A DNA stretch of 40,128 nt from Escherichia phage mEp506. A program made the translations under genes and the position numbers. The notes below the pieces were generated by a model. It had not been told where the DNA came from and did no database searches. It saw nothing but the letters and a program-made list of their open reading frames with translations. Every line of letters starts with the position of its first letter. The first letter of the stretch is position 1. This document shows, one piece after another, positions 27,096 through 30,375 of this stretch. The DNA is taken from the sequence record PV340542; one strand, 5' to 3'.

Positions 27096-30000
27096 ATGGC
27101 AACGCTGCGCGAGCTAATCATCAAAATTTCGGCGAACTCCTCTTCTTTCCAGTCAGAGATCGCCAGAGCGTCCCGCATGGGAACCGATTACTACCGCACT
27201 ATGGAACAGGGCGGGAAAAAAGCTGCAGCGGCCACGCGTGAAACTCAGCGGTCTTTGGCTGACCTGAATTCTCAGCTTGCAACCGTGCGATCCTCTGCTG
27301 CCGGGCTTGCCGGTGCGTGGGCTGGTGCATTTGCCACGCATCAGCTGATTCAGTTTGCCGACACGTGGAACCAGTTGAATGGGCGTCTTCGCCTTGCGTC
27401 CTCTTCCAGTGAGGATTACGTGCAATCCCAGCGCGTGCTGATGGAGATTAGCCAGCGCACCGGAACATCCCTCGAGGCAAACAGCAACCTGTACAGCAGA
27501 ATTGCGCAGTCCCTGCGAGATGCCGGTTACGCTTCTGCTGACGTCGCAAAAGTTACGGAAACCGTAGCAACCTCACTGAAGCTGTCTGGCGCCAGTACCG
27601 AAGAGGCGAGTTCTGTTATCACCCAGCTTAGCCAGGCACTTGGCTCAGGCGTTTTGCGAGGTGAAGAATTTAACTCCATCATGGAGAATGGTGGCCGCCT
27701 GGCGAAACTGCTGGCTGATGGGCTGGGTACCACTGTTGGTGGCCTGCGAAATATGGCCAACAATGGCGAGCTGACGACCAACAAGATCGTCCCGCTGCTG
27801 ACCAACGTTGAGATCCTCCGTAAAGAATTCGACACCCTTCCTGCATCCATCAGCGGATCTGCACAGAAAGTTCAAAACGCCTTTCTCGCATGGGTTGGCG
27901 GGGCGAATGATGCTGTCGGCGCATCATCCACGCTTTCTGGCGTGCTGGATGGTCTGGCGAATAACATCGATGATGTGGCAAATACAGCCGGTCTTCTGGT
28001 TGGTGTTGGCCTCGCTCGTTATTTTGGCAACATGGTCGGCAGCGTTGCTCAGTCAACCCGGGCAGTCCTCGCTAATACGGCCGCCGAGGTCGCGCTGGCG
28101 CAGGCTCAGGTCCGTGGAGCTCAGGTTAGCGTTGCTGCTGGTCGCCAGGCTGTTTACCGCGCTCAACAGGCGCGTGCAGCGGCGACGAGTATTGAGGCTC
28201 AGATTGTCGCTGAGCGTAATCTTGCTGCTGCTCAGGCATCACTGAATACGGCGCTTGCTGGCAGGACTTCGGCCGTTAATAACCTCACCAATACAGCCTC
28301 GGTGATGTCCCGCCTGGGTAGTGGCGTTCTTGGTATTCTCGGTGGCTGGCCTGGAGTGATTATCGGTGCCGGCGCTGCGATGTATGGCCTGTATCAGCAT
28401 ACCCAGCAGGTGCACCGTGAGGCGGTAGGTTTTGCCAACAACCTCGACGAGATCAACACCAAGCTCCAGCAGATGTCGGTGCTTGGCCTGCGTTCGACCG
28501 CGGCTGATGCCCGTACATCTTTACAGGCGCAAAAACAGGACCTGGCCGACCTCGACTCTCAGATCGCGAAGGTGAAAGACAGCCTTAAGGCGGTTGACCA
28601 AATCCAGCAGGACTATAACCGCCATCCGACGCTGACCCTGATTAACACTTTCATGGACCAGGCCGACATCACGGCCAAAAATATCGAGCTGACCGATAAG
28701 CTGAACCAGCTGGAGTACCAGCGCGAACAGGCAGCCTCAAAAGTCGAGCAAACTCAGAAGCTGGTAAACCAGGCCAGCGATCTGGCCACGCAAAAGGCTA
28801 TCGAACAGGCTGGCGCCGTCTCTATCCTGAAAGGTGCGTATGACCTGCTTAACCGCTCAATGTCAGCGACCGCTGGCGCCAAGCCGCCGCAATATGCCGG
28901 GCCCGTCGTTTCACTGGCGAACGCAACGCCTCAACAGCAAACCGCACTGGAGCGCTCACGCCGAGATAACGAGCTGGCCAGCCTAAGCGGTTTAGAGAAA
29001 CTCCATCAGCAGCACGTGTATGAAGCAGAAGACCTGAAGCTGACGGGAGCACTTTACACCCAGTACATCTACAACAAGGATCAGGCAGCCAAAAAAGATG
29101 CAGCGGCTGCGGAGGCAAAAAAACCTCTACCGCCGCCTCGAAAGCACAGAGTAAAGCCGAGCGTGAAGCGGCCAGCACCGCCGAACAGTATTCCCGGAAA
29201 ATGGCCGATCTGAGTGTGGCTATTGATGTGCAACGCGTCAGGGCGACGGAAGGCGAAAAAGCATCCGAGCTTTACGCGGCATCGCACCAGGCAGGCACTA
29301 AATGGACCGACGAGCAGCGCAGGGCGATCCAGGCATCATCAGCAGAGCTGGCAAAATGGACGCAAAAAGCCGACGAGAACGTGCGCAAGCAGCGCGAACA
29401 GGCTGATGCCCTGAAGGATTTAACTGAAGCGGCCAGAAAGTTCAGGGATGAGGCGACGCTGACAACCGAAACCGCAGGCATGAGCGATCGCCAGCGCAGC
29501 CGGTTCGACGAGACGCAACAGATCGACCGTGTTTTTGCTAAAACGGACGGCGGTACCGAGTCCATCGCGCAGCGCGCCGCAGCCCTCGATGCTCTGGATA
29601 AGAAATACAAGGCTATTGCAGCAGCTGAAGCGGACTGGATGTCCGGAGTATCACGCGGCTATGCAAACTGGTTTGATGAAATCAGTAACGTATCCGGCAC
29701 GGTTTCTGATGGGGTGAAAACCACACTCGACAGCGCTTTTGGTAACGTCACCTCAATGCTAGAAGGCAATAAGGTTAGCTGGAAATCGTGGGGTATTTCT
29801 GTGCTGCAGATTATCGAAAAAGTGGCTCTGCAGATGGCGGTGGTTAGCGCGATGGGTGGGGCCTCTTCCGGTTCTGGCATCTTTGGCTCTCTCATCGGCA
29901 GTGTAGGCAGCTTCTTCGGGGGCGGGGCGGGAGCATCAGCCAGCACCGGTACGGCGGTTTCCAGTTACGGATCGAACTTCCAGTTTAACGCCAAAGGCGG

Positions 30001-30375
30001 CGTTTATGACTCCCCTCTCTGAGCGCTTTCAGTAATGGGATCGTCAGAAACCCCACCATGTTCGCTTTCGCAAAAGGCGGGGCCGGAATCATGGGCGAGG
30101 CTGGGCCGGAGGCGATCATGCCGCTTACCCGCGCGCCGGATGGTTCTCTCGGCGTTCGTGCGGTCGGAGGTGGCGGCGGTCAGTCTGTATCTTCGGCACC
30201 ACAGGTTTATATCACCATCGATGGCAACGGAAACACTCAAACTCAGGCCTCACTAGGCCTTGAGCAATTTGGTGCCGAGGTCGGGGAATTTGTTGATCGA
30301 CGTTATAAGCAGAATGTGATGCGTGACATTCGTCCCGGCGGCGACATCTGGAACGCAATGAAAGGAACCCGATAA
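27096..30375 (+). pseudogene. H: tail tape measure protein (lambda H-like), split into three ORFs by two 1-bp homopolymer frameshifts
   Basis: ORFs 27096..29213, 29201..30022 and 30058..30375 are contiguous pieces; frame changes at an A7 run (29117-29123) and a C4 run (30012-30015); the last piece carries the lambda H-like C-terminus MFAFAKGG...GEAGPEAIMPL. Confidence 0.8.

Follow-up and report, generated by a model that had tools for sequence, protein, structure and literature searches.

The tape measure gene of Escherichia phage mEp506, as it stands in sequence record PV340542 (40,128 nucleotides [nt], the whole stretch being the window referred to below), spans positions 27096 to 30375 on the plus strand and is split over three open reading frames (ORFs) by two breaks, one at a run of seven adenines (A7) and the other at a run of four cytosines (C4). 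These two breaks are most likely homopolymer undercalls made during assembly, in which case the true sequence would read A8 and C5 and the gene would encode a single protein of 1093 amino acids (aa). We infer a technical rather than a mutational cause from contractions that are private to this record, one sided and length dependent, from the lack of other signs of decay and from the intact protein that is recovered upon repair.

A tape measure gene in three reading frames

The gene is complete, with 3280 nt versus 3282 nt in intact relatives. ORF1 (27096 to 29213, frame 0, 705 aa) encodes the genuine residues 1 to 676 of the tape measure protein (TMP) and then, from position 29124, a 29-aa out-of-frame tail rich in proline (KKPLPPPRKHRVKPSVKRPAPP). 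ORF2 (29201 to 30022, frame 2) yields 273 aa when counted from the first ATG; in that frame, the true TMP sequence extends from 29124 to 30015 and goes onward from the A run as KKTSTAASKAQSKAEREAASTAEQYSRKMADLSV. ORF3 (30058 to 30375, frame 1) yields 105 aa, also from its first ATG, and here the true reading begins at 30016 (SLSAFSNG...) and goes onward from the C run as SLSAFSNGIVRNPTMFAFAKGG. All three lie on the plus strand, each shifted by −1 relative to its predecessor. The first-pass annotation of this DNA had proposed that they were contiguous pieces of one H-like protein, that the A7 run turned the upstream frame into proline-rich nonsense while the true continuation lay in the next frame, and that the frame changed again at the C4 run. 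The peptides it listed are encoded exactly at those positions, including the frame-1 continuation after the C run, and the unity of the three pieces was borne out by the relatives with a single ORF, by the two-base repair and by the profile matches described below.

Addition of one A and one C produced a single ORF of 1093 aa, close to the 1090 aa or so that had been predicted for a repaired gene and identical to the TMP of phage HK542 at 1084 of 1093 positions. As given, the record shows three ORFs where a tape measure gene should have a single one of about 1090 codons, and the latter appears only after the repair of both bases. Intact homologues annotated as tail length tape measure protein (from phages Fraca, ECP1, HK542, LMessi and mEp390 and from the prophages of E. 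coli UMNK88 and ETEC1749) are all single ORFs of 3282 to 3288 nt with 89 to 97.6% nucleotide identity. The repaired protein matched the profiles PF20155 TMP_3 (189 bits, cutoff of 41), PF06120 Phage_HK97_TLTM (59 bits, cutoff of 24), PF09718 Tape_meas_lam_C (52 bits, cutoff of 23) and TIGR02675 (77 bits), as well as TIGR01541 (148 bits, cutoff of 104.75), whose match covers residues 735 to 1046 and bridges the second break. The gene is located after the G/G-T chaperones and before M-L-K-I-J, in the same order as in HK542, HK97 and other annotated relatives. By profile matches and synteny, it is evidently an ordinary tape measure gene of the lambda H/HK97 gp16 type. In lambda, the length of gpH sets the length of the tail, and the C-terminal part of the protein is needed for the initiation of the tail tip.

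When aligned base by base with six intact relatives, the gene showed precisely two one-base gaps, at the A run and at the C run. The first (29117 to 29123, in the phase GCA AAA AAA CCT) is A8 in all six and, in the wider set of relatives that we retrieved, in 31 of 31. At the second (30012 to 30015), HK542, ECP1 and UMNK88 have C5, while the others have TCCA or TCAA; CCCA was also found among relatives, and C5 was present in all 16 members of the wider set that have a pure C run. We also surveyed alleles with a degenerate pattern that admits either A7 or A8, which gave 2 GTDB genome, 26 IMG/VR and 10 metagenome loci. None of these 38 matches carried A7 and all carried A8, while the genome and IMG/VR loci spanning the second site always had one base more than the mEp506 record (23 of 23). 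Because all 38 pattern matches are A8 and none is A7, the two breaks are not due to chance. Compared to the Hendrixvirinae TMPs (HK542, ECP1, Fraca, LMessi, mEp390 and the UMNK88 prophage), location, domains and the repaired length of 1093 aa are shared, and only this record is short of one A in the A8 run and of one base where the C5 would be, by which its frame is interrupted twice.

Homopolymer contractions along the whole prophage

To place the two breaks in context, every homopolymer of the window was compared with six whole relative genomes, and a run was scored as shorter only when it was shorter than in all the relatives covering it. The proportion of shorter runs rose with length, from 0/1216 and 0/293 at lengths 3 and 4 to 4/95 and 1/31 at lengths 5 and 6 and to 3/7 and 2/3 at lengths 7 and 8. 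In total, about 10 contractions were found with no comparable expansions (P of about 0.001 to 0.004 if both directions are equally likely), the sole run longer here being an A5 versus A4 at 4051, within a divergent noncoding stretch. Nucleotide composition had a marked effect, since among runs of 5 to 6 those of G/C were shortened in 5 of 24 cases and those of A/T in 0 of 124, A/T runs contracting only at lengths of at least 7.

The contracted coding sites are at 1108 (int), 29117 and 30012 (H), 31772 (K) and 37033 (J), and the noncoding ones, which are one or two bases below the relatives, are at 19078 to 19083, 19149 to 19154 (near cos), 24314 to 24317 (just past the capsid stop), 25830 to 25835 and 26334 to 26339 (terminator T runs). 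Some of the latter group are less clear-cut. The poly-G near cos is G6 here versus G8 to G11, with a length that varies among the relatives themselves, and the terminator runs at 25830 and 26334 are T6, a length found also in some members of the larger set; since they are no longer private there, it is possible that these two represent natural polymorphism. Per-run contraction rates were alike in coding and noncoding DNA, and three essential tail genes were struck four times, which indicates that selection has not filtered these events. The breaks of the tape measure gene are thus not gene specific, the same type of lesion being present at about eight other homopolymers, and it is this recurrence across the prophage that puts an assembly artifact ahead of an event specific to the gene.

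Under this scenario, the one-base undercalls would have arisen when the chromosome of a lysogen bearing the prophage was sequenced and assembled, and the identical process would have shortened the other eight or so runs, so that int, K and J appear frameshifted. The load of 10 to 11 events per 40,128 nt corresponds to about Q36. Nanopore R9.4 assemblies polished with Racon and Medaka have been reported to reach Q36 to Q38, their residual errors being mainly homopolymer indels that lead to frameshifts and spurious pseudogenes (PMC8011154), and a separate analysis of long-read assemblies found most indel errors to be false deletions (PMC12007338). The events in mEp506 resemble the homopolymer false deletions of long-read (Oxford Nanopore Technologies [ONT] or PacBio) or flow-based (454 or Ion Torrent) assemblies in being one base long, confined to homopolymers, length dependent, one sided, indifferent to coding and close to Q36. 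Homologous genomes lack them as well, and it is by such absence that the homology-based polishers Homopolish and Kastor recognize errors.

Other disrupted genes

Comparison at the protein level showed that disruption is limited to int, the holin gene, H (twice), K and J. The K-like tail gene (C40 peptidase, 31473 to 32182, plus strand) is split at a G4 run (31772 to 31775) into ORFs at 31473 to 31862 and 31727 to 32182; the run is G5 in 14 of 14 relatives and in the 17 complete E. coli genomes, all of them concordant, that hold the segment. The gene of the central tail fiber, J (33613 to 37163, plus strand), has a frameshift 42 codons from its end, in a G5 run (37033 to 37037) that is G6 in 5 of 5 relatives, and the listed J ORF stops at 37080 with a nonsense tail. 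None of the complete E. coli genomes that include the K and J segments carries the contracted alleles, and exact look-ups of the frameshifted ORF1 and J products found no recorded copy of either. The HK022-type integrase gene (75 to 1147, minus strand) loses its frame after codon 13, in the run 1108 to 1111 (G4 on the plus strand, G5 in HK022), a site covered by one relative only, and HK022 Int is matched at 100% of the other 344 residues. Most segments on either side of the breaks are 98 to 100% identical to their orthologues; the body of J is 89% identical to that of HK542, and the middle of H, with 85%, falls below the level of most of these flanking segments.

The fifth gene is a different case. 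The lambda-family holin (15657 to 15966, plus strand) is cut short after residue 73 by a private deletion of 14 nt between 15876 and 15877, which is the sole disrupting lesion located outside a homopolymer and has no clear flanking direct repeat. The absent nucleotides (TAACGAGCGTGTTT) occur in 6 of 6 whole relatives. More than 1000 complete E. coli genomes match the segment, and the best of these matches all retain the 14 nt. A search of IMG/VR for the deletion junction gave 0 matches. This deletion falls outside the class of homopolymer false deletions and is the one kind of lesion in the window atypical of sequencing.

Sequencing error or a decaying prophage

The main alternative is that the frameshifts are real and that a prophage still functional in the recent past is decaying through slipped-strand mutation of its homopolymers. 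In that event, the tape measure gene is a true pseudogene, in a prophage with defects in tail assembly (H, K and J), in lysis (holin) and in Int-dependent recombination. We consider this unlikely, but several observations speak for it and weigh against an origin in the assembly. The DNA belongs to an integrated prophage (see below), where inactivating mutations are tolerated, and every lesion is private to the record, as recent events would be. Genuine replication slippage also climbs steeply with run length, the rate of natural indels doing so exponentially (PMC8510543), and the dependence on run length by itself does not discriminate between slippage and artifact. Furthermore, some long runs have remained intact (A8 at 25171 to 25178 and A7 at 21656 and 21944), and the holin deletion, being private and unrelated to any homopolymer, would be unusual for a consensus artifact and is hard to blame on base-calling, so that genuine mutation may lie behind at least one lesion.

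The spectrum of mutations argues in the other direction. In mutation-accumulation data for mismatch repair-deficient E. coli, 30,061 base-pair substitutions were recorded versus 5,324 small indels, and within coding sequences (CDS) the numbers were 27,164 and 3,841 (PMC8510543). At some 5.6 to 7 substitutions per indel, the six coding indels seen here predict about 40 or more unselected coding substitutions, among which approximately 25 to 32 detectable nonsynonymous and 2 to 3 nonsense changes would be expected. We observed at most about 15 isolated private nonsynonymous substitutions and no nonsense changes (P of about 0.02 or lower). Overall, private substitutions numbered 74 synonymous versus 42 nonsynonymous, an excess opposite to that of a decaying element, and transitions equaled transversions (61:61), with no sign of a mutator-like transition excess. 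Neither would decay easily account for the fact that all of the roughly 10 homopolymer events are contractions.

Other marks of relaxed selection were likewise missing. When the CDS of the relatives were used as queries, 94 of 110 were full length in one frame, and the other flagged cases corresponded to mosaic boundaries. No premature stop caused by a substitution was detected among the genes, and there were no insertion sequence (IS) elements or large deletions, the gene complement being full. Hence, the window shows none of the features expected of a decaying prophage (nonsense changes, nonsynonymous excess, IS elements or large deletions), and, judging from these substitution patterns, the lineage shows purifying selection otherwise.

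The plain ratio of indels to substitutions was also tried as a discriminator between error and mutation but proved indecisive genome-wide, as the private substitutions mix old, selected divergence with mosaic patches; for this reason, we relied instead on the lack of nonsense changes and on the excess of synonymous ones. Dense clusters of private substitutions are found at 13103 to 13218, 18615 to 18732, 36450 to 36469, 37293 to 37338 and 38765 to 38858, and these resemble short patches of mosaicism, recombined in from unsampled phages, rather than point mutations. Among the isolated private substitutions, 4 of 54 fall in Dam (GATC) or Dcm (CCWGG) motifs versus 2.4% expected (positions 11603, 11605, 16333 and 17572). 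This overlap is a weak hint of base-calling error linked to methylation, and we have not relied upon it.

The practical consequences of the two explanations differ. If the contractions are artifacts, the annotation as it stands would wrongly call int, H, K and J pseudogenes and an apparently complete prophage defective, and the remainder of the source assembly would probably carry errors at a like density, about one per 4 kb. If they are real, this would be an ordinary case of a recently inactivated prophage. Under either outcome, the knowledge of tape measure proteins is unchanged and nothing novel is added, and the record warrants polishing or resequencing before its pseudogenes are believed.

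Programmed frameshifting in the tail module

The tail module has a genuine programmed −1 frameshift, in the chaperone pair located immediately 5′ of the tape measure gene (26373 to 27061, plus strand). It comprises G (26373 to 26774) and T (26798 to 27061, in the −1 frame), and the canonical lambda-type slippery heptamer G_GGA_AAG is found in phase at 26762 to 26768, at the end of G, the programmed site thus being intact. The A7 run of the tape measure gene happens to form an in-phase X_XXY_YYZ heptamer as well (GC A_AAA_AAA CCT), where a −1 slip restores the exact wild-type protein, and slippage in the P site from CCU to CCC has the same outcome at the second break. A7 and C4 could accordingly be read as functional sites of recoding or phase variation, at which −1 ribosomal frameshifting or transcriptional slippage tunes or switches the production of tails. 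We regard this as very improbable. The architecture is conserved nowhere, with A7 in 0 of 38 pattern matches and 0 of 31 aligned relatives, all of which have a single ORF. Folding of the 77 nt of RNA that follow each site was no better than that of shuffled sequences (z = +0.49 and −0.60), two successive low-efficiency events would be required, and more again in K and J. The genuine frameshift of the module (at 26762) is elsewhere and conserved. Both belong to the same tail module, but the G-T site is conserved and upstream of the tape measure gene, whereas the breaks within the latter are unique and have neither a conserved partner nor a stimulatory structure. With neither conservation nor downstream structure, programmed recoding was rejected.

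A variant in which the run lengths are real and A7 acts as a leaky switch, slippage yielding a low level of wild-type TMP, is just as hard to credit. Were it true, the contractions in H, K and J would amount to a reversible silencing of tail production in the resident prophage, similar to phase variation. Undercalled runs in the assembly remain the most plausible source of these changes.

Prophage type, ends and replication origin

The 40,128-nt window comprises an entire lambdoid genome, HK022/HK97-like and belonging to the Hendrixvirinae, from integrase through side tail fiber, and its two ends join inside an HK022-type attP. The right end (40099 to 40128, plus strand) is a hybrid attR, with the phage P arm, the overlap AGGTGAA and then AAAG, which are 4 nt of the bacterial B′ arm at torS-torT. 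Its terminal sequence (...CATCCTTTAGGTGAAAAAG) is identical to the attR of torS-torT lysogens; E. coli CM2 continues as ...GGTGAAAAAGGTTGAG..., while attP reads ...GGTGAATAAGTTG. The left end (ATAAGTTGTATA...) matches the P′ arm as found in the attL of E2348/69, positions 1 to 8 (ATAAGTTG) of the window being the P′ arm of its own attL. As the ends are remnants of attL and attR, the window is best described as an integrated prophage excised in silico, from attL to attR, out of the chromosome assembly of a lysogen, the hybrid character of the right end being given by one discriminating base together with the layout.

The replication module provided two minor observations. Phage ECP1 (KY979108.1) shows, within positions 79 to 907, a one-base difference from the other relatives in its O replication gene (position 9209 in our window), and its annotation divides the gene into two CDS (79 to 333 and 326 to 907), which suggests that this public record may hold a similar frameshift problem. 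In mEp506, the O-like replication gene (8908 to 9798) contains direct repeats with a spacing of 11 nt (TTGTCCAACGG) at 9282 to 9388, an array resembling the iterons at the ori of lambdoid phages.

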